A DNA stretch of 14,871 bases. It comes from a virus (Duplodnaviria; Heunggongvirae; Uroviricota; Caudoviricetes). The notes beneath the pieces are model-generated. The model was not told the origin of the DNA. It was given only the letters and a program-made list of their open reading frames with translations, and made no database searches. The position numbers and the translations under genes were made by a program. Shown here in pieces: positions 515 through 13,107 of this stretch. The stretch is from IMG/VR virus record IMGVR_UViG_2541047124_000022. One strand, 5' to 3'. How positions within the stretch are numbered: the first letter of the stretch is position 1; every line of letters starts with the position of its first letter.

Positions 515-564
515 TGGTGGCCCTTGCTGGATTTGAACCAGCGACCTGGCGATTATGAGTCGCT
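515..564 (-). pseudogene. 5'-truncated tRNA with CAT anticodon (tRNA-Ile2/Met type); only nt 27-76 retained
   Basis: Reverse complement gives anticodon arm AGCGA-CTCATAA-TCGCC (4 of 5 stem pairs; first pair A-C mismatched), variable AGGTC, T arm GCTGG-TTCAAAT-CCAGC, acceptor 3' strand AAGGGCC, discriminator A, CCA. The expected 5' acceptor strand GGCCCTT and a D arm are absent; the sequence at 565-600 is unrelated and AT-rich. Confidence 0.6.
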
Positions 565-712
565 CTCATCATTTAGCTAAAATGGCTGGGGGAGTGATGA
601 TACATCAGTCACATTAAACATGAAAACAAAATGGTTTTAGGTGAAATACAAAAAGAATAGTGATTAAATATCAAATGGATATGCTTTAAATCTAACCACA
701 GTAAGGACGAGT

Positions 713-1793: not shown

Positions 1794-2609
1794 TCAGTAA
1801 CTCGTTGCCTTCTCAAATTCTCTAGCCGCATGCCGCTCACCTTGATGCAGGATATCAACCAATTTTTCATAGAATGGTTTCCAATTGCGCGACCATGAAG
1901 ACTGGTGCAGATCGGGAATGTATATTTGAATAGCTCGATGAACATTAGCTGATTTGATAGATACGAATCCCTTTCCACTACAACGCTCGCAGATTTTAAA
2001 CACTGGCACACCACGCTCGCTTGTGGCTTTGCGGTCCAGTACCTCTCCCTTTCCACCACAACGACACCTGGCACTTATCACTCCCTTCCCTTTACATACA
2101 TCGCAAACGACTGGTACAACTTCCGTTACCTCTGTCCATTTTTCCCAGTCTGACGGTCGAACAGCACGGGAGCGACTGGCCCAATATGGTGCTTTACCCC
2201 ATGGGTATGAAACCTTACGAATGACCTGCTTACGGGGTGTTAGTCCGGTACCACTGCAACTATGGCATGTTACGCTGGTGGCCGCCGATCGGGAATACTC
2301 AGCAAAAGCAAACTGAGCCAGTACCAGCATACACCAGCCAAATTCACCACCAGCTGCTTTACGCACATTCTTCGGTGCAATTTCCATCGCGTGACGCGCC
2401 AGCGCCTGGACTGCCATCTGCTCATCAGTCTTGCTGATACCGGCCTTCCCGAAGAAGGCCGCCAGGCCAAACCGCTCACGATTGCTGGTGGTACCAATAG
2501 CCGCCATAACATCGGTGCCTGTAAGACGTTCCGGAGAGGTTCCTTTCACATCGTCGCCGATATACATTCCCTGAGGACTGAAGTATTTTAGCGATGCCTC
2601 AAGCTTCAT
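1794..2609 (-). CDS. Zinc-finger protein with four DnaJ-like CxxCxGxG repeats, 271 aa; possible Q-type late antiterminator by position
   Basis: Motifs CHSCSGTG, CDVCKGKG, CRCGGKG, CERCSGKG. Start overlaps upstream gene stop (TAATG). Last gene of the early-right operon, immediately upstream of the promoter-terminator unit. Confidence 0.8.
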   Translation of the reverse strand: MKLEASLKYFSPQGMYIGDDVKGTSPERLTGTDVMAAIGTTSNRERFGLAAFFGKAGISKTDEQMAVQALARHAMEIAPKNVRKAAGGEFGWCMLVLAQFAFAEYSRSAATSVTCHSCSGTGLTPRKQVIRKVSYPWGKAPYWASRSRAVRPSDWEKWTEVTEVVPVVCDVCKGKGVISARCRCGGKGEVLDRKATSERGVPVFKICERCSGKGFVSIKSANVHRAIQIYIPDLHQSSWSRNWKPFYEKLVDILHQGERHAAREFEKATSY

Positions 2610-3466
2610 TATTCACACTCCCCAACCAGATTGAGAATGACCGCTGCACCGTCGTCTTCCATGCATTCACCCTTACCACTTGCCAGAAACCAGCGGCACA
2701 CCTCCACGGCTTCAGCGCGTGTCACCGGTTTGATAGTTGCCAGCAATTTTTCAAGGTAGCGCTCCCGGTCATATACTGATTCGTGATGCTCAGAGTAACC
2801 AAACTCATCGCCCTGTTCTTTAGTTGCAGTGTGGCGAACACTGTAGAGCCAGTCCCAGTAAACGAACTCGCGAACAACATCAGACAGCGTATAAGGCTCA
2901 GGCAGCACATCGCGATATCCATCAACAAATGCCCGACGCTGTTCATCAATTTCGTTCATGCGGCTGCCGCCAATGCTTCCGGCTTTTTTCTCTGCCGCAG
3001 TCCAGCCCCAGAGATGATCGTTGATAAATTTCTGGGAAGACCTGATGACCCGCTCTGCTTCCACATCTTCGAGCGCTGCTTCATAGCTACCAAACGTAGC
3101 CCTGACTGATGCCGCTTTTTTGATGTTCTCCCGGGCGTTCCTGATAACCTGCGCAGGGTTATCCATGCCGATGATGCCGAACGCAACCTGGAAAGGTTCG
3201 TAACCATTCGCCAGCAGATAACGCGAATAGCGTTCCTGAGCCTCTTTTGGGGAAATTTTAATTTTCACCAGCGCAGCCTCAGCAGCATCCAGATGTGCGG
3301 GTTCGTTCAGACGGATAACCTCCAGCACCCAAAGATAAGCATCAGTCTGCTTATGCCCGGTGATTCTCCGTTGCTCTGGCAGGGGCTTGATGTTTGCGAG
3401 GGCGGAGCTGTACGCTGCCGTCGGGATGGTGAATAGTGCTTTATGTTCGTTGTTATCAGTACGCAT
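2609..3466 (-). CDS. Hypothetical protein, 285 aa, in the replication operon
   Basis: Long ORF translationally coupled at both ends (TAATG overlaps with primase stop and zinc-finger gene start). No recognisable motif. Confidence 0.75.
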   Translation of the reverse strand: MRTDNNEHKALFTIPTAAYSSALANIKPLPEQRRITGHKQTDAYLWVLEVIRLNEPAHLDAAEAALVKIKISPKEAQERYSRYLLANGYEPFQVAFGIIGMDNPAQVIRNARENIKKAASVRATFGSYEAALEDVEAERVIRSSQKFINDHLWGWTAAEKKAGSIGGSRMNEIDEQRRAFVDGYRDVLPEPYTLSDVVREFVYWDWLYSVRHTATKEQGDEFGYSEHHESVYDRERYLEKLLATIKPVTRAEAVEVCRWFLASGKGECMEDDGAAVILNLVGECE

Positions 3467-4434
3467 TACGCAACCGCCTTTTTCTTATGGAAAACCAGCT
3501 CTCGAACCTGATCACCGTTCATGAGCATATTGTTGAAATCATCGTGATCCGGCCAGTACACGCTCACGCGCTGCAGGTCATTCTTTGCCATCAGATTGGC
3601 ATGAGCACATTCGCAAGCCGCAGCCAGCCCGGTGGCGCTGTTCTCGTCACGGTCGGCAAAAATAATCAGGTGCAAAACACCAGTTGGTACGCGGAACTTT
3701 TTCATAAAGCCGCTGTTAATGGTTGCCCAGGTGTTCACGTTATAAATCTGGTGCGCTGACAGCGCTGTTTCGATGCCTTCGGCGATACCCAGAGTGCTGG
3801 CGACAGGAAACATGCGGATAGCTACAGAACGAGCGTGATCCAAATAGTTATCTTCCTGCAGGGATTTGAGGCGCTTTGCACTGCTACCGATATCTGCTTT
3901 TTTATCACCATCAAGCAGAGTCTGGTGCAGATAGCACAACTCCCCTTTATCGTCCGTAGCAAGTGAATAAAGAGACTGGAACACACTCCCGTTGTGTCTC
4001 TGCCTGGCATTGAACCGGATCGCCTCAGCAGGAAGACTGAATATTCCACGAGAATTAAGATACGCTGCGCCGGATGTACCACGCAGTGCCTCCAGTTTTG
4101 AAAACTTGCTCAATACCCGTTTGCGTAAGCTGGTGGCGCTGCTGGTTACCGGGATTTTAACCCGTTGGTAATCATTACCGATCAGGCGGTCTATTTCGGT
4201 ACAAATCTCGTTAAATGGCTTCGCCTGTGTCAGGGTGACAAGTTTCATACCATCGCCACTACCACATACACAGATCCACGTTCCTGCACCGTCGCGGTCG
4301 TCAATTCGGAACTTGCCACGTGCACCGCATACCGGGCATTCACCCTTGAAGTGATTTTTTCCGGTTATCGGCGGCAGACCGAAGTGCTCTAATATTTCAG
4401 GCCAGCGGCCTTTCGCTGCATCTGCTGTTTTCAT
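3466..4434 (-). CDS. DNA primase, zinc-ribbon plus TOPRIM type, 322 aa
   Basis: N-terminal CPVCG...CVCG zinc-binding motif; acidic TOPRIM-like motifs (IAEGIETALS, IFADRDENSATG); start 1 nt after helicase stop. Confidence 0.8.
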   Translation of the reverse strand: MKTADAAKGRWPEILEHFGLPPITGKNHFKGECPVCGARGKFRIDDRDGAGTWICVCGSGDGMKLVTLTQAKPFNEICTEIDRLIGNDYQRVKIPVTSSATSLRKRVLSKFSKLEALRGTSGAAYLNSRGIFSLPAEAIRFNARQRHNGSVFQSLYSLATDDKGELCYLHQTLLDGDKKADIGSSAKRLKSLQEDNYLDHARSVAIRMFPVASTLGIAEGIETALSAHQIYNVNTWATINSGFMKKFRVPTGVLHLIIFADRDENSATGLAAACECAHANLMAKNDLQRVSVYWPDHDDFNNMLMNGDQVRELVFHKKKAVA

Positions 4435-4435
4435 C

Positions 4436-6094
4436 TTACTGACTCAGACTGTTTATATTTTTCTGGAGTTGGTGCTTTGCCTGCATGATGCGCCAGGCCT
4501 CACTGCCTGCCGGTATCTCACGTCGTTCATCACGTTCCTGAGATAAATCAATCGTTGTTTGTGCGTTTTCAGTGACCTTCTGAACCCGCTGGTGGCCTTT
4601 GGCAAACCGGATCAGTTTGTGTCTGATGTAGTTATTTACCTCAGGGGTAATTTCCATCGGAAAGTTACTCAGTCCGTCAGGCCACTCGCCGAACTTTTCC
4701 CGGAAAGTGTGAGCACACCATCCGTCACTGACTGGACGCCCCAGCGAAGCACGCTGGCGCTGATAAAATTTGATCTGACTCCACCAGGACTGTTTCTCTG
4801 CCTTCGTCGACTGATGCTGATTTTTACCCAGCTTATTAAGTTTGCGGCTAGTGTCAGTATCAACGTCTTCACCTCGCAGCGGCTTGTGTCCACATTTCGG
4901 GCAAACATAGACGCCTGCTGGCTTCATGTAGTGGCATTGAGGGCATTCATGTGGCAGTTTTTCGGCCCGTTCCTCAACTGCCCGGCGCGCGCTTTCCTCC
5001 ATGCCGTCAGACTTACCGGGAAGCTCGTCGTACTCGATTGAATCCGGATAACCCAAACGGTGCACGGTGCCGCTGTGATCGAAGATAAGGCAGGACTCTT
5101 TACCCGGTGCGGTGCGAAGCCCACGCCCGAGAGCCTGCAACCAGCGAATTTCGCTTTTTGTTGGCCTGGCGTAGATGATGCAACGAACGTCACTATCGAA
5201 TCCGGCTACCAGAACGCCCACACTAACGATGATTTTCGTTGCACCAGTTTCAAAGCGGTGAATGATGGTCTGGCGCTCATCTACCGGAGTATCTGCGGTC
5301 ATTACCTCAGAGTTAACACCTGCGAGGTTAAACTGGATTGTCAGGTAATTGGCGTGGGCTACGTTGACGCAGAAAGCGATGGTAGGTAGATCCCGACCAT
5401 TCTCCAGCCAGTTCTGTACAATGTCGCCCACCAGCGTAGAGCCGCACATGATTTCAGCCAGCTGTGTTTCGTTGTAATCGCGGCCGTACTCAAGCGAAGA
5501 TGTGGTTTTAACACCTTTCAGATCCGGCTTAGTTGGCGCGTAAAATTCGTATTTACTCAGATCGCCACGCTGGATTAACTCGCCGATGGTGGTCGGTTTA
5601 ATCAGTCGGTCATAGTATTTGCCCAGGAACGGGGAAAACGGAGTACCCGACAGGCCAATCACCTTTACGCCTTTGCCGCGCAGACGTTCGATATCCTTCA
5701 GGATGCGTTTTTTACGCAGGTGCGCTTCGTCGATAATCAGCAGATCGATATTTTCAGGAAAAACACGACGAATAAGCGTATCAGCGCTGGCAATCTGAAT
5801 TTTCCGGTCCGGATCGTAGTTCGGGTGATCCGCCCAGATATAACCGATTTCATCTCCAGGTAAACCATACTGCACGAACCGATTAGCCGTCTGACCAATC
5901 AGGATGGTGTACGGAACACAGAACAGAGCGCGCATACCACGGCTGACAAAACCAGCAACTATGAAGGCTGCCAGACCCGTTTTACCGCTACCTGTTGGCG
6001 AATACACCATGAAGGTGTCGTTTGCCTTCCAGTCACGGCGCAACATGTTTAGCGCTCGTTCCTGTGCAAAATTCGGCGTGATCGTCAGCTCCAT
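4436..6094 (-). CDS. Superfamily-2 DEAH-box helicase, 552 aa; candidate replicative helicase
   Basis: Walker A SPTGSGKT; Walker B LIIDEAH; C-terminal zinc ribbon CPQC...CPKCGH; GGGAG SD 7 nt upstream of ATG. Confidence 0.85.
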   Translation of the reverse strand: MELTITPNFAQERALNMLRRDWKANDTFMVYSPTGSGKTGLAAFIVAGFVSRGMRALFCVPYTILIGQTANRFVQYGLPGDEIGYIWADHPNYDPDRKIQIASADTLIRRVFPENIDLLIIDEAHLRKKRILKDIERLRGKGVKVIGLSGTPFSPFLGKYYDRLIKPTTIGELIQRGDLSKYEFYAPTKPDLKGVKTTSSLEYGRDYNETQLAEIMCGSTLVGDIVQNWLENGRDLPTIAFCVNVAHANYLTIQFNLAGVNSEVMTADTPVDERQTIIHRFETGATKIIVSVGVLVAGFDSDVRCIIYARPTKSEIRWLQALGRGLRTAPGKESCLIFDHSGTVHRLGYPDSIEYDELPGKSDGMEESARRAVEERAEKLPHECPQCHYMKPAGVYVCPKCGHKPLRGEDVDTDTSRKLNKLGKNQHQSTKAEKQSWWSQIKFYQRQRASLGRPVSDGWCAHTFREKFGEWPDGLSNFPMEITPEVNNYIRHKLIRFAKGHQRVQKVTENAQTTIDLSQERDERREIPAGSEAWRIMQAKHQLQKNINSLSQ

Positions 6095-9522: not shown

Positions 9523-9730
9523 TTTATCCTCTGTATCTGTTGTGCACGAAAAAGTGCAGATCGTTATGATAATTGAAAATGGCCAAGTCACAGGTGTCTG
9601 CAAAGTCCGCGATGGCGAGCTGATTGCCAGCATGGATACATTCATACGGCTGGCAGAAAGAGCGGGGTATCAGATAACAGCACCTGCTCAGGAGGAAACC
9701 GGTGGCATTAACAGCAACACGCATTCCTGA
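9515..9730 (+). CDS. Hypothetical protein, 71 aa
   Basis: ATG with GGAGGA SD 7 nt upstream. Confidence 0.55.
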   Translation: MANLSSVSVVHEKVQIVMIIENGQVTGVCKVRDGELIASMDTFIRLAERAGYQITAPAQEETGGINSNTHS

Positions 9731-9920
9731 GCGGATCCACCGGCAGGCATTGCAGGTCCTGTTGTTGTACCGATGCCGACGGATATTTCCGCATCGGATA
9801 CAGCGCACCGGATATCTCAGTCTGAAGATTAACCGTCGCTGGCGGCTGTTATCGAAAGACGACGGCCGGAACTGGGAAGTAATGAGTCATGAACGTTATT
9901 CGGGAGAAATAAAGAAATGA
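9702..9920 (+). CDS. Arg-rich basic protein, 72 aa, GTG start
   Basis: GTG at 9702 with GGAGGA SD 5 nt upstream; stop overlaps next ATG (ATGA at 9917-9920); lies in a locally GC-rich segment. Confidence 0.4.
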   Translation: MALTATRIPERIHRQALQVLLLYRCRRIFPHRIQRTGYLSLKINRRWRLLSKDDGRNWEVMSHERYSGEIKK

Positions 9921-10369: not shown

Positions 10370-10558
10370 ATGAACATTTATTTCAGAATAGTTATATCAC
10401 TGGCAATTATCACATGTATTTACGGATTAATCGTTCCGGCCCTCATATCAATGAAGGATACGGTAGCAGTGATTTCTGGCTTTGCTCTGGCGTGTCTGAC
10501 CCCGCCCTGCATTTATGCCATTTATAAGGGTCTTTCTTTTTCTAAGGATAAAAGATGA
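10370..10558 (+). CDS. Small membrane protein with two predicted TM helices, 62 aa
   Basis: Strong SD (CAGGAGGACC-ATG); hydrophobic stretches IVISLAIITCIYGLIVPALI and VAVISGFALACLTPPCIYAIY; ATGA-coupled to the downstream SPFH gene. Confidence 0.7.
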   Translation: MNIYFRIVISLAIITCIYGLIVPALISMKDTVAVISGFALACLTPPCIYAIYKGLSFSKDKR

Positions 10559-11382
10559 AAAAATTACTTTTTGCTTTAGCCCTTGTTCTGCCGACCATTG
10601 GCCTTGTCGGTTGCGATCGCGTTGAGCCTGGTAATGTGGGCATCAAAGTAAACAAACTGGGCGACGATAAAGGCGTCGGTGAAGTGGTCGGTGTTGGGCG
10701 CTACTGGACTGGATGGAACACTGAGGTTTACATCTTCCCGACCTTTAAGCAGATGAAGACCTACGATGATCCATTCAGTTTCCAGATGAGTGACGGTACA
10801 ACCATCGGCTATCACATCGGCGTGGCCTACAAAGTTGATCCATCCAAAGTTACCACGGTGTTTCAAACCTACCGCAAAGGCGTGGACGACATTACCGACA
10901 CCGACCTGCGCCAGAAGATAGCCGACGCACTCAACCGACTGGCCAGCAAAATGACCACCGACAAATTTATCGACGGCGGCAAGTCTGAGCTGCTGGATGC
11001 AGCTCTTAAAGACATTCAGGAAGAAATGACGCCCATCGGTATTCAGGTAATGAGCCTCTCATATGTGGGTAAGCCGGAGTACCCGCCTACTGTTATCGAC
11101 AGCATTAATGCCAAAGTCACGGCGAACCAGAAAACCCTGCAACGCGAGCAGGAAGTAAAACAGCGCGAAGCGGAAGCCAACATGTTGCGCGCGGAAGCTG
11201 CCGGACAGGCAGATGCGATTCGCACAAAAGCCCAGGCCGAAGCCGACGCTATTCGTTTACGCGGTGAAGCTCTGCGTCAGAACCCCGGTGTTATGGAGCT
11301 GGAAGCCATCAACAAGTGGAACGGTACACTGCCGCAATACATGACCAGCGGTGCCAACACACCATTTATTCAGGTTAAGTAA
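10555..11382 (+). CDS. SPFH/band-7 (prohibitin/HflC-like) lipoprotein, 275 aa
   Basis: Signal peptide with lipobox LVGC (Cys20); SPFH-like core; C-terminal Ala/Glu/Arg/Gln-rich coiled-coil region (QREQEVKQREAEANMLRAEAAGQADAIRTKAQAEADAIRLRGEA). Confidence 0.75.
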   Translation: MKKLLFALALVLPTIGLVGCDRVEPGNVGIKVNKLGDDKGVGEVVGVGRYWTGWNTEVYIFPTFKQMKTYDDPFSFQMSDGTTIGYHIGVAYKVDPSKVTTVFQTYRKGVDDITDTDLRQKIADALNRLASKMTTDKFIDGGKSELLDAALKDIQEEMTPIGIQVMSLSYVGKPEYPPTVIDSINAKVTANQKTLQREQEVKQREAEANMLRAEAAGQADAIRTKAQAEADAIRLRGEALRQNPGVMELEAINKWNGTLPQYMTSGANTPFIQVK

Positions 11383-11425: not shown

Positions 11426-12175
11426 ATGAATATTGTAACCATCAACAACAAACAGTTTCCGGTAATCGAATATCGCGGTCAGCGTGTTGTGACATTTGCA
11501 ATGATTGATGACGTCCACCAGCGCCCGGAAGGTACCGCCCGTGCTGCGTTTAACCGCAACCGTTCTCACTTTATCGAAGGGGTGGATTTTCTTGAAATGA
11601 CTGCGGACGTAATACGTACGGAGTCACTTTCTGATGCCTTTGCCGCGCGAACTGCCAAAGGGATCATTCTTTTCGAGTCTGGTTACCTGATGTTGACGAA
11701 GCCTTTTAACGATACTCTTGCATGGCAGGTTCAGCGCGAACTGGTTAACAGCTATTTCCGAACTCACGCGCCGCTGACGGAAATGGAGATGATCGCTGCA
11801 ATGGCCGCCGATGCCGTTCGTCAGCAGAAGCGCCTGAGTCATGTTGAAGAGAAGATCGAAACGGTCACCAAAGCTGTGGAGAACATCAAACGCGGCACAA
11901 TGCGCACCGGATATGTCGGTTACCGCCAGGTGGTAGCCAAAAGCGGAATGAGTGACGCCAAGTGTCGGAATCTGGTCAACGCCTACCACATCCCTACCGA
12001 CACGCACGAATTTATGACTCCGGACGGTCTGTTGTCTCGCAGGGCTATCGTCGAGCTTGAGACATTTATGGCGGCATTCCACCAAATGATGTCAGAGGCT
12101 GAACCACGCGGCACACGCTGGTATCACCCGAATATGGGGCTTTTCCAGGTAATCGGATGGGAGGATAAAGCATGA
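11426..12175 (+). CDS. Rha/ORF6N-family phage regulatory protein (antirepressor-like), 250 aa
   Basis: ATG at 11426 with GGAGA SD 5 nt upstream (tracked ORF starts earlier in the same frame); N-terminal segment GQRVVTFAMIDDVHQRPEGTARAAFNRNRSHFIEGVDF matches the Rha/ORF6N pattern from memory. Confidence 0.55.
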   Translation: MNIVTINNKQFPVIEYRGQRVVTFAMIDDVHQRPEGTARAAFNRNRSHFIEGVDFLEMTADVIRTESLSDAFAARTAKGIILFESGYLMLTKPFNDTLAWQVQRELVNSYFRTHAPLTEMEMIAAMAADAVRQQKRLSHVEEKIETVTKAVENIKRGTMRTGYVGYRQVVAKSGMSDAKCRNLVNAYHIPTDTHEFMTPDGLLSRRAIVELETFMAAFHQMMSEAEPRGTRWYHPNMGLFQVIGWEDKA

Positions 12176-12741
12176 TCATCCAGTCAAAACTTATTCGCGC
12201 CGCTCTGGTGTGCGCTGCTAAAAACGACGTTCGTTATTACCTGAACGGTCTTCACATCAAGCCAAAACATATTGAGGCAACCAATGGTTTCGTAGCACTG
12301 CGCATGACTCACGGCATCCGGACGAAGAAAAACATCATTGTCCAGTTCGAAGGTGGCGTCCCGGCCAAAGCCGAAACGACAGAGCTGATTTTTAGTAAAG
12401 AGCCGATCGCTGTTCATCGCGACCAGTTTCAGCGCCGACTGTCCATTACCGGCATTAAATTGGTGGGCGGTTGTTTTCCGGATTTGGAACGCATCATTCC
12501 GAAAAAATTTGACCTCTGTACACACCCGGTGATCCAGGCGGGTTACCTGAGTTATCCAGAGAAGATGTTTGGTCGTGAGCGTAAATTTATTCCCGTCCAG
12601 TTACGTCCCTCCGGTGACGGGCAAGCGGTCAGAATTCAGTTTGATTCCATCATCAACTCAATGTATGGCAATCCTGAATTTGTTGTGATGCCTTGTCGTG
12701 ATCATGGCGATTTCAATGTGGCTCAGGAGCATCCGGAATGA
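12172..12741 (+). CDS. Truncated beta sliding-clamp (DnaN) homolog, 189 aa
   Basis: DVRYYLNG motif plus segments aligning by eye to E. coli DnaN domain II and C-terminus (ITGIKLVGGCFPDLERIIPKKFD; FVVMPCR). Too short to hold three clamp domains. ATGA coupling at both ends. Confidence 0.55.
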   Translation: MIIQSKLIRAALVCAAKNDVRYYLNGLHIKPKHIEATNGFVALRMTHGIRTKKNIIVQFEGGVPAKAETTELIFSKEPIAVHRDQFQRRLSITGIKLVGGCFPDLERIIPKKFDLCTHPVIQAGYLSYPEKMFGRERKFIPVQLRPSGDGQAVRIQFDSIINSMYGNPEFVVMPCRDHGDFNVAQEHPE

Positions 12742-12860
12742 AAATCGAATACCAGGACGCCGCAGGAGGTGAATCAATGAGCTGGCCTGATGCAATCGTA
12801 ACTCTGGGGGTGGTATTCGCAGCAGCGTTTGTTGTGTTCTCGATTTGTCGATGGGGATAA
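12738..12860 (+). CDS. Small single-pass membrane peptide, 40 aa (27 aa from internal ATG 12777)
   Basis: ATG 12738 overlaps clamp-like stop; internal ATG 12777 has AGGAGGT SD 6 nt upstream; hydrophobic core AIVTLGVVFAAAFVVFSI. Confidence 0.4.
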   Translation: MKIEYQDAAGGESMSWPDAIVTLGVVFAAAFVVFSICRWG

Positions 12861-12864
12861 CCAC

Positions 12865-13107
12865 ATGTTCGCTTTGATTCAACGCGGTCAGATATGCACG
12901 GACAGAGCCGGATACCCCGTGGTGATTACTCGCATCACTGAGCACTCAGTGTTCTTTCGACGGATGGACGGACGATCCGGGCGGGTACGCATTGGTGAGT
13001 TAAACTGCCTGTTCGAACATATTGACCACCAGGAGTACCGCAAAATTCTCGCGGACACTGAGCAGGAAAAGCACCTGAAAAAATTACGAGCCATAAAAAG
13101 GAAGTAA
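12865..13107 (+). CDS. Hypothetical protein, 80 aa
   Basis: ATG at 12865, 4 nt after the small peptide stop (tracked ORF starts upstream in frame). Confidence 0.5.
   Translation: MFALIQRGQICTDRAGYPVVITRITEHSVFFRRMDGRSGRVRIGELNCLFEHIDHQEYRKILADTEQEKHLKKLRAIKRK

Follow-up and report, generated by a model that had tools for sequence, protein, structure and literature searches.

The window analysed here is the whole 14,871-nucleotide stretch of the Caudoviricetes record IMGVR_UViG_2541047124_000022 (IMG/VR); it corresponds to the early region of a lambdoid prophage whose neighbours in E. coli are a DUF72 gene and yecN. Our subject is a 189-amino-acid open reading frame (ORF) with an ATG start at 12172–12741 (plus strand, as are the early-left operon features below unless stated otherwise), found in the ORF list of the window and in RefSeq as WP_021501358.1, for which the newest PGAP naming is ‘beta clamp domain-containing protein’. 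We refer to its product as the mini-clamp. The start codon of the gene shares an ATGA at 12172–12175 with the stop of the gene upstream, and its own stop overlaps, again as ATGA, the start of a 40-amino-acid ORF at 12738–12860. The gene order of the window begins with tRNAs, a Q-like antiterminator, a replication module (a toprim protein and a DEAD/DEAH helicase) and helix-turn-helix regulators. These are followed by a long co-directional early-left operon, situated between the immunity region and xis/int, which encodes a ParE-like protein, an SPFH protein, an ORF6N anti-repressor-like protein, the mini-clamp, a small ORF, a DUF4222 protein, a 48-amino-acid ORF, xis and int.

A promoter and terminator scan around the mini-clamp gene found neither a promoter-like site nor a convincing terminator specific to the gene, and we therefore regard it as one cistron of the early-left operon. 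Two ORFs on the opposite strand, at 12184–12525 and 12658–12945, are mechanical ORFs unsupported by any search. The defence models of PADLOC-DB gave zero matches to the mini-clamp and seven neighbouring proteins, and an Rfam scan of the whole stretch returned only tRNAs, distant from this locus. Identical copies of the gene are present in several E. coli genomes, and related sequence occurs in 332 of 5,426 complete E. coli genomes.

A beta-clamp homolog reduced to domain II and half of domain III

The original prediction had read this ORF as a truncated homolog of the beta sliding clamp (DnaN), citing a DVRYYLNG motif and segments resembling domain II and the C-terminal strand of DnaN, with the proviso that the likeness needed confirmation. 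The motif is present at residues 19–26 (12226–12249); the likeness to domain II is colinear with E. coli DnaN 136–254 and includes KLVxGxFPDxxRxxPK; and the mini-clamp segment FVVMPCR aligns with YVVMPMR at DnaN 359–365. When the single sequence is searched, the signal is marginal: the Pfam model PF02767 matches residues 6–44 at E 0.023 (15.4 bits against a cut-off of 27), TIGR00663 matches at E 7.7e-4 (18.5 bits against a cut-off of 137.65), so that the protein lies below the cut-offs of both curated DnaN models, and a search of the beta clamps in the Protein Data Bank (PDB) gives E about 0.02. Among 54 family members, only 13 reach E<=0.01 with PF02767 and only 10 with PF02768. Once a profile of these 54 sequences is used, the similarity rises far above chance: E. 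coli beta is found in the PDB at E 2e-12 (hmmsearch), and hhalign against DnaN, whose reference sequence we checked to be identical to 1MMI chain A, gives a probability of 98.3% and E 1.6e-14. The proposed check against clamp hidden Markov models (HMMs) thus gave a marginal answer for the single sequence and a strongly significant one for the family profile. Structure prediction agrees, as the monomer model is very confident and compact (predicted TM-score, pTM, 0.89) and its Foldseek matches are to clamps. The mini-clamp is a genuine beta-clamp homolog, as the original prediction had proposed.

At 189 residues against 366 in DnaN, the protein is indeed too short for a three-domain protomer, and in its architecture DnaN domain II runs straight into the second half of domain III. 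Domain II and the II–III connector account for the N-terminal 115 residues. By hhalign and HMM alignment, residues 1–98 (12172–12465) are the domain II equivalent (DnaN about 132–237). They contain the DVRYYLNG loop, where R21 and L24 correspond to R152 and L155 in subsite I of the beta docking pocket (residue list from PMC11139829), and the segment ATNGFVA (residues 36–42, 12277–12297), which aligns with ATDGHRL at beta 171–177 so that T37, G39 and F40 match T172, G174 and H175. The connector, residues 99–121 (12466–12534), equates GGCFPDLERIIPK with DGRFPDYRRVLPK of the beta II–III linker and aligns P103, R107 and I108 with P242, R246 and V247. Residues 122–177 (12535–12702) are equivalent to the second half of domain III (DnaN 320–366), as located by the C-terminal profile, Foldseek and HMM mapping; Q122 and Y125 correspond to N320 and Y323, and VVMPCR at 171–176 to V360–R365, which supply pocket subsite II and the C-terminal strand. 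A variable, low-confidence tail (residues 178–189, 12703–12738) ends the protein; it is unconserved in the family alignments, and the predicted local distance difference test score (pLDDT) in the last two blocks of the model is 82 and 58.

The assignment of the C-terminal part deserves comment, because clamp domains are internal duplications and a C-terminal motif in a single sequence is ambiguous as to its origin. A C-terminal family profile built from 166 diverse representatives (consensus eigfnaeYL...liiMPmRl) scores 27.5 bits (E 7.7e-10) on DnaN 306–366 and 3.2 bits on 245–309. The Foldseek alignments span about 254–260 columns for the 189-residue query, which fits a match that begins in domain II, skips about 65 residues at the first half of domain III and then continues to the C-terminus. 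We mapped the protein onto beta by the family HMMs, as a naive pairwise alignment to spliced DnaN misplaced the diverged C-terminal segment.

The mini-clamp has no counterpart of DnaN domain I or of the first half of domain III. The second channel-lining helix of domain II (alpha2, DnaN 197–208) is replaced in the model by the loop EGGVPAKAE, whose P64 is 96% conserved; DSSP assigns no helix between the strands at 55–59 and 69–73, and the only model helices are 5–14 and 123–133, that is, two of the three channel-lining helices expected. The dimer interface of beta brings I78, F106, K74, R96, R103 and R105 against I272, L273 and E298–E304 (PMC11139829). The first set lies in domain I and the second in the first half of domain III, and every published interface residue thus falls in segments without a mini-clamp counterpart. 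From the positions of the pocket and interface residues (PMC11139829) we infer that the half-domains follow one another round the beta ring in the order I-2nd, I-1st, II-2nd, II-1st, III-2nd, III-1st. In that order, the mini-clamp would be a contiguous arc of three motifs, II-2nd, II-1st and III-2nd. These three half-domains are spatially adjacent in beta and, with the II–III linker and the C-terminal strand, form its hydrophobic pocket.

Conservation of the docking pocket and the extent of the family

The beta pocket receives the clamp-binding motifs (QL[SD]LF-type) of the alpha subunit of DNA polymerase (Pol) III, the clamp-loader subunit delta, Pol II, Pol IV, Pol V, Hda, MutS and MutL. It comprises subsite I (R152, L155, T172, G174, H175, R176, L177, P242, R246, V247, V360 and M362) and subsite II (H175, N320, Y323, V344, M362, P363, M364 and R365) (PMC11139829). 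We mapped these 18 residues through the family HMMs and scored conservation over 166 representatives with a median identity of 30% to the query. The family consensus equals the E. coli beta residue at 14 of the 18 positions, with conservation of R21 (99%), L24 (94%), T37 (90%), G39 (99%) and histidine at position 40 (90%) in the N-terminal part, and of P103 (99%), Y125 (90%), M173 (97%), P174 (93%) and R176 (81%) further on. Pocket positions make up eight of the 11 family positions conserved at >=0.9 (hypergeometric P 3e-7), and conservation is 0.71 in the pocket versus 0.38 in the rest (Mann-Whitney 1.9e-6). The mini-clamp of this window is itself identical to beta at 11 of 18 pocket positions versus 29 of 135 others (Fisher 9e-4). 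The other highly conserved residues are D19, Y23 and G26, also in the DVRYYLNG loop, and the family-specific P64. Selection in the family is thus focused on the protein-docking pocket of beta.

This family is large and uniform in length. A family profile search collected 1,197 relatives, and the full-length ones among the matches listed are almost all 176–192 amino acids long; an exhaustive search of 1.84 billion representatives yielded 402 clusters (50% identity) at E<=1e-10, nearly all of them stand-alone proteins of 170–215 amino acids. The mini-clamp matches phrog_3007 at E 2.9e-64 over residues 1–179 and is an intact member of this short phage clamp-like family. Prophage carriers are found in Escherichia, Salmonella, Klebsiella, Yersinia, Providencia, Xenorhabdus and others, and virulent siphophage carriers include Skate, relatives of Salmonella phage IME207, Yersinia P400 and Vibrio phages. 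In the BFVD, short clamp-fold proteins of 163–250 amino acids with TM-scores up to 0.82 come from phages of Pantoea, Serratia, Burkholderia, Rhodococcus, Xanthomonas and Bacillus. The ratio of nonsynonymous to synonymous substitution rates (dN/dS) between unsaturated pairs is 0.09–0.16, which indicates strong purifying selection on the gene. The view of the protein as a truncated fragment accordingly gives way to that of a large, length-conserved family under purifying selection.

Two atypical copies were seen alongside the family. Salmonella phage Fels-1 (NC_010391.1, 2529–2849) has only the C-terminal mini-clamp part, residues 80–187 at 71% identity, spread across two ‘hypothetical’ features, and this copy has probably decayed or recombined. 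In the 282-residue metagenomic protein P0013, the C-terminus reads through into a downstream coiled-coil gene and the VVMPCR strand has become VVMRCR; either a frameshift artefact or gene decay may account for this protein. P0013 and the 255-residue P0035, which has a mis-called start, had been considered as natural fusions; the one being a read-through and the other a wrong start, both are uninformative.

Names in sequence records vary between ‘hypothetical’, ‘DNA polymerase III beta subunit’, ‘beta clamp domain-containing protein’ and ‘RusA-like Holliday junction resolvase’. The last is the phrog_3007 label, copied in many phage records (for example NC_054653.1, NC_021563.1 and NC_054651.1). 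Neither sequence nor fold searches of the mini-clamp support a RusA domain or fold, and the label seems to be an annotation error, attached to a clamp-fold protein and passed on between records; since it is in wide use, its correction matters beyond this locus. Nor is ‘DNA polymerase III beta subunit’ a proper name for the mini-clamp: it has the homologous fold and the conserved docking pocket, and it lacks the three domains, the dimer interface, the two helices per domain and the scores above curated cut-offs that define a beta protomer. Our full-text literature searches found no study of the short clamp family.

The downstream membrane peptide and other neighbours

The original prediction had coupled the mini-clamp to a single-transmembrane peptide of 27–40 amino acids with a strong Shine-Dalgarno sequence. 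The ATGA overlap, the Shine-Dalgarno sequence (GGAGG at 12765–12769) and the hydrophobic 27-amino-acid form (12777–12860; MSWPDAIVTLGVVFAAAFVVFSICRWG), which is conserved elsewhere, all hold. In the 40-amino-acid reading of the same ORF (12738–12860; WP_021501359.1 in PGAP), which is the one overlapped with the mini-clamp stop, the N-terminal 13 residues are unconserved elsewhere. Homology to other lambdoid prophages starts at a mosaic breakpoint at 12746–12763, just past the mini-clamp stop, and homology of the small ORF in other genomes begins exactly at the Shine-Dalgarno sequence of the 27-amino-acid form. By tblastn and blastn, the peptide sequence from about residue 9 onward recurs in 69 phage records and in 1,080 of 5,426 E. 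coli genomes. In every locus inspected the small ORF lies directly upstream of the DUF4222 gene, and the genes that precede it elsewhere are unrelated ones (Ea22, DUF551 and a dATP/dGTP-pyrophosphohydrolase-domain protein). Because the peptide recurs ahead of DUF4222 and behind unrelated genes, we assign it to the DUF4222–xis–int module.

The ATGA-coupled 40-amino-acid form occurs at this junction only, among the loci aligned, and what comes after the mini-clamp gene in other family loci is a different gene or a terminator. Judged by these alignments, the real unit is a conserved single-transmembrane ORF of 27–28 amino acids belonging to the DUF4222–xis–int module, and the 40-amino-acid form is a product of the mosaic junction at about 12746–12763. 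A diverged copy, MMNWPEAFTAVGVAIAVAFILYSLFRWG, differs from MSWPDAIVTLGVVFAAAFVVFSICRWG by about 30% at the DNA level and keeps the start, stop, length and hydrophobic character. The small ORF is unannotated in all three records inspected (L016, about 1519–1600; L017, about 1536–1620; L018, about 1529–1616), and with its strong Shine-Dalgarno sequence it is also present in many Shiga toxin (Stx)/lambdoid phages. As a partner of the mini-clamp the peptide was rejected, being part of the neighbouring module and sitting behind unrelated genes in other prophages.

Upstream, ATGA-coupled to the mini-clamp, lies the gene of the ORF6N-domain anti-repressor-like protein (11426–12175; 250 amino acids from the PGAP start). 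Its C-terminus, at about 12128–12172, ends in RWYHPNMGLFQVIGWEDKA, where ‘NMGLF’ resembles a clamp-binding motif (QLGLF in Pol II, AMSLF in delta). The end of the protein, HPNMGLFQVIGWEDKA, is also found in Klebsiella loci, there behind a different N-terminal domain (pRha). The protein was dropped as a specific partner, as Salmonella and Providencia loci lack it and its C-terminal domain is present in phiP27 and D6 without any mini-clamp; the link between motif and mini-clamp is probably coincidental. A scan of all 24 ORFs of the stretch for clamp-binding motifs gave four loose matches versus 1.4 expected, none of them terminal, and was uninformative.

Elsewhere in the window, the replication module (2609–6094, minus strand) encodes a DEAD/DEAH-box helicase of 552 amino acids, a toprim-domain protein of 322 and a 285-residue unknown instead of lambda O/P. 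No DNA polymerase gene was seen in this module or in the whole stretch, and on that ground the phage is presumed to rely on the Pol III and beta of its host. The early-left operon also encodes a ParE-like toxin-family protein (9702–9920), with no obvious antitoxin annotated alongside, and an SPFH-domain protein (10555–11382), both unmatched by PADLOC models. Beside two tRNA-Arg genes (341–417 and 431–507), a third tRNA-like Rfam match at 518–586 (minus strand, 36 bits) is uncalled by ARAGORN and unannotated in RefSeq; it may be a degenerate tRNA of the type found downstream of Q in Stx-type phages.

Possible functions and relation to known systems

On balance, we consider the mini-clamp best explained as a pocket-only clamp that binds proteins carrying clamp-binding motifs and serves as a decoy or an adaptor. 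It would be expressed from the early-left operon during lytic growth of the prophage, a timing suggested by its position in that operon. Without the interface segments and one channel helix, it would most likely neither form a beta-type ring nor pair with host beta, and the retained pocket would then present itself as a soluble module to proteins with clamp-binding motifs. As a decoy, the mini-clamp would titrate host clamp clients away from beta; as an adaptor, it would tether a clamp client to a phage process. Candidate targets of a decoy are, for example, the SOS-induced translesion polymerases, Hda, MutS/MutL and clamp-loader delta. An attractive, though speculative, scenario for SOS-inducible prophages is that the mini-clamp might titrate translesion polymerases made in the SOS response, or further clients that vie with Pol III for access to beta. 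Lambda is already known to raise dnaN translation, through the small RNA PreS, in support of its own replication (bioRxiv 10.1101/2024.10.31.621285). The family loci share no conserved phage-encoded neighbour, and the ligand is for that reason more likely to be a host clamp client. A pocket outside the ring can be binding-competent, as is shown by the precedent of monomeric beta I272A/L273A, whose binding to delta is about 50 times tighter than that of the ring (PMC11139829). The broader proposal, that phages of many lineages carry such a pocket-only clamp mimic as a soluble decoy to rewire access to the host replication hub in lytic growth, is more tentative, and we regard it as possible rather than probable. 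Of the earlier idea that the protein might heterodimerise with or mimic host beta, or recruit clamp-binding proteins, mimicry directed at the clients fits the selective conservation of the pocket, and the heterodimer route does not.

Several points weigh against a decoy or adaptor. Clamp-binding peptides generally bind beta with only moderate affinity, and a decoy would have to be abundantly expressed or make additional contacts. Like lambdoid phages in general, this phage presumably needs host Pol III and beta, and an indiscriminate decoy would hurt the phage itself. In DnaN at large, too, the pocket residues are among those conserved best, and the C-terminal mapping rests on the family profile, a pairwise alignment of this copy misplacing that segment. 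If the core of the orphan half-domain is exposed, it could drive homo-oligomerisation. In this copy, moreover, position 40 is phenylalanine (12289–12291), where 90% of the family and beta (H175) have histidine, and position 122 is glutamine (12535–12537), where 70% of the family have asparagine (N320). Both are pocket positions, bridging or polar, and so the ligand specificity of this E. coli lineage may be altered.

Among the alternatives, a loader-independent tether resembling UL42, which would bind DNA by a basic surface and hold a host polymerase or repair enzyme through the pocket without encircling, draws on the basic character of the mini-clamp (isoelectric point 9.3 versus 5.25 for DnaN). 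This basicity is only partly shared, however, as 22% of members have an isoelectric point below 6.5. One channel-lining helix is lost, and few basic positions are conserved beyond the pocket residues R21, R107 and R176. We consider such a tether unlikely.

A new kind of ring is an improbable reading. Protomers of one and a half domains would self-assemble into a true sliding clamp or half-ring, for example two of them through their orphan half-domains about a dyad, or four of them. The strictly conserved length, the internal pseudo-twofold symmetry of clamp domains, by which the orphan half-domain of one copy might in principle be completed by that of a second, and the arithmetic of three half-domains times four, equal to the 12 of the beta ring, all lend it some appeal. 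Yet only two of the three expected channel-lining helices remain, the model of a single chain is by itself compact and of very high confidence (the pTM given above), the lambdoid carriers show neither a polymerase nor a clamp loader of their own in the stretch, and the putative new interfaces carry no conservation signal.

Poisoning of the host clamp, as the original prediction had suggested, would have the fragment pair with a host beta protomer, or cap an opened ring, and block closure or loading. A beta homolog is encoded for expression by a phage, and phages are known to target beta, for example through Twort Gp168 (PMC8565349); both sides of the dimer interface nonetheless lie in the absent domain I and first half of domain III, and the conserved positions are those of the pocket and not of the edge strands. 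Pairing with host beta is thus unlikely, and the poison reading as a whole quite improbable. That the gene is a non-functional remnant of a full-length phage clamp gene might be argued from its shortness relative to DnaN and from the further truncated copy in Fels-1 (residues 80–187), but the low dN/dS, the hundreds of diverged clusters of the same length and the confident fold prediction make this hardly credible. We give next to no credence to a RusA-like Holliday junction resolvase, for which only the phrog_3007 label and the records that copy it speak, and to which sequence and fold both give no support.

Bacterial replication and repair centre on beta, which is also targeted by antibiotics through this same pocket. 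If the broader decoy proposal is true, the mini-clamp would represent a new class of host-takeover factor, one that imitates the docking site of beta rather than binding beta. A widespread phage protein reduced to this pocket would also offer a natural minimal pocket scaffold of 21 kDa, possibly monomeric, for inhibitor screening and structural work, a probe of which clamp clients limit phage growth, and a case of a ring protein reduced to a single functional surface.

Set beside E. coli DnaN (P0A988; 1MMI, 2POL), the mini-clamp is homologous in sequence and fold over domain II and the linker, and again over the second half of domain III, and retains the pocket residues R152, L155, T172, G174, (H175), P242, R246, V247, (N320), Y323, M362, P363 and R365, the bracketed ones being replaced in this copy by F40 and Q122. 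Unlike DnaN, it has no domain I, no first half of domain III and no dimer interface, carries a loop in place of one channel helix, and is basic rather than acidic. Monomeric beta I272A/L273A is likewise a non-ring form with an intact pocket, but it is an engineered, full-length, three-domain protein, and it keeps a loop of domain III, missing from the mini-clamp, through which delta makes extra contacts. Full-length phage clamps (phrog_947; Ralstonia phage Heva, Gordonia phages) are also phage-borne DnaN homologs, with a weak profile match at E 8.7e-5; they differ in having about 350–380 amino acids and three domains and are presumably true clamps for phage or host polymerases. The herpesviral proteins UL42 of herpes simplex virus (HSV), UL44 of cytomegalovirus (CMV), PF-8 of Kaposi’s sarcoma-associated herpesvirus (KSHV) and BMRF1 of Epstein-Barr virus (EBV) are viral proteins that use the clamp fold without a closed, loader-dependent ring and bind a polymerase peptide; in function the mini-clamp may be akin to these open factors or to monomeric beta. 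Phages are known to manipulate the clamp–client network, as with Twort Gp168 (PMC8565349) and with Mu MuC, which has a clamp-binding motif of its own and recruits beta to the transcription of late genes (PMC12867686). Both of these bind host beta, whereas the mini-clamp would imitate the docking site of beta, a mirror-image strategy.

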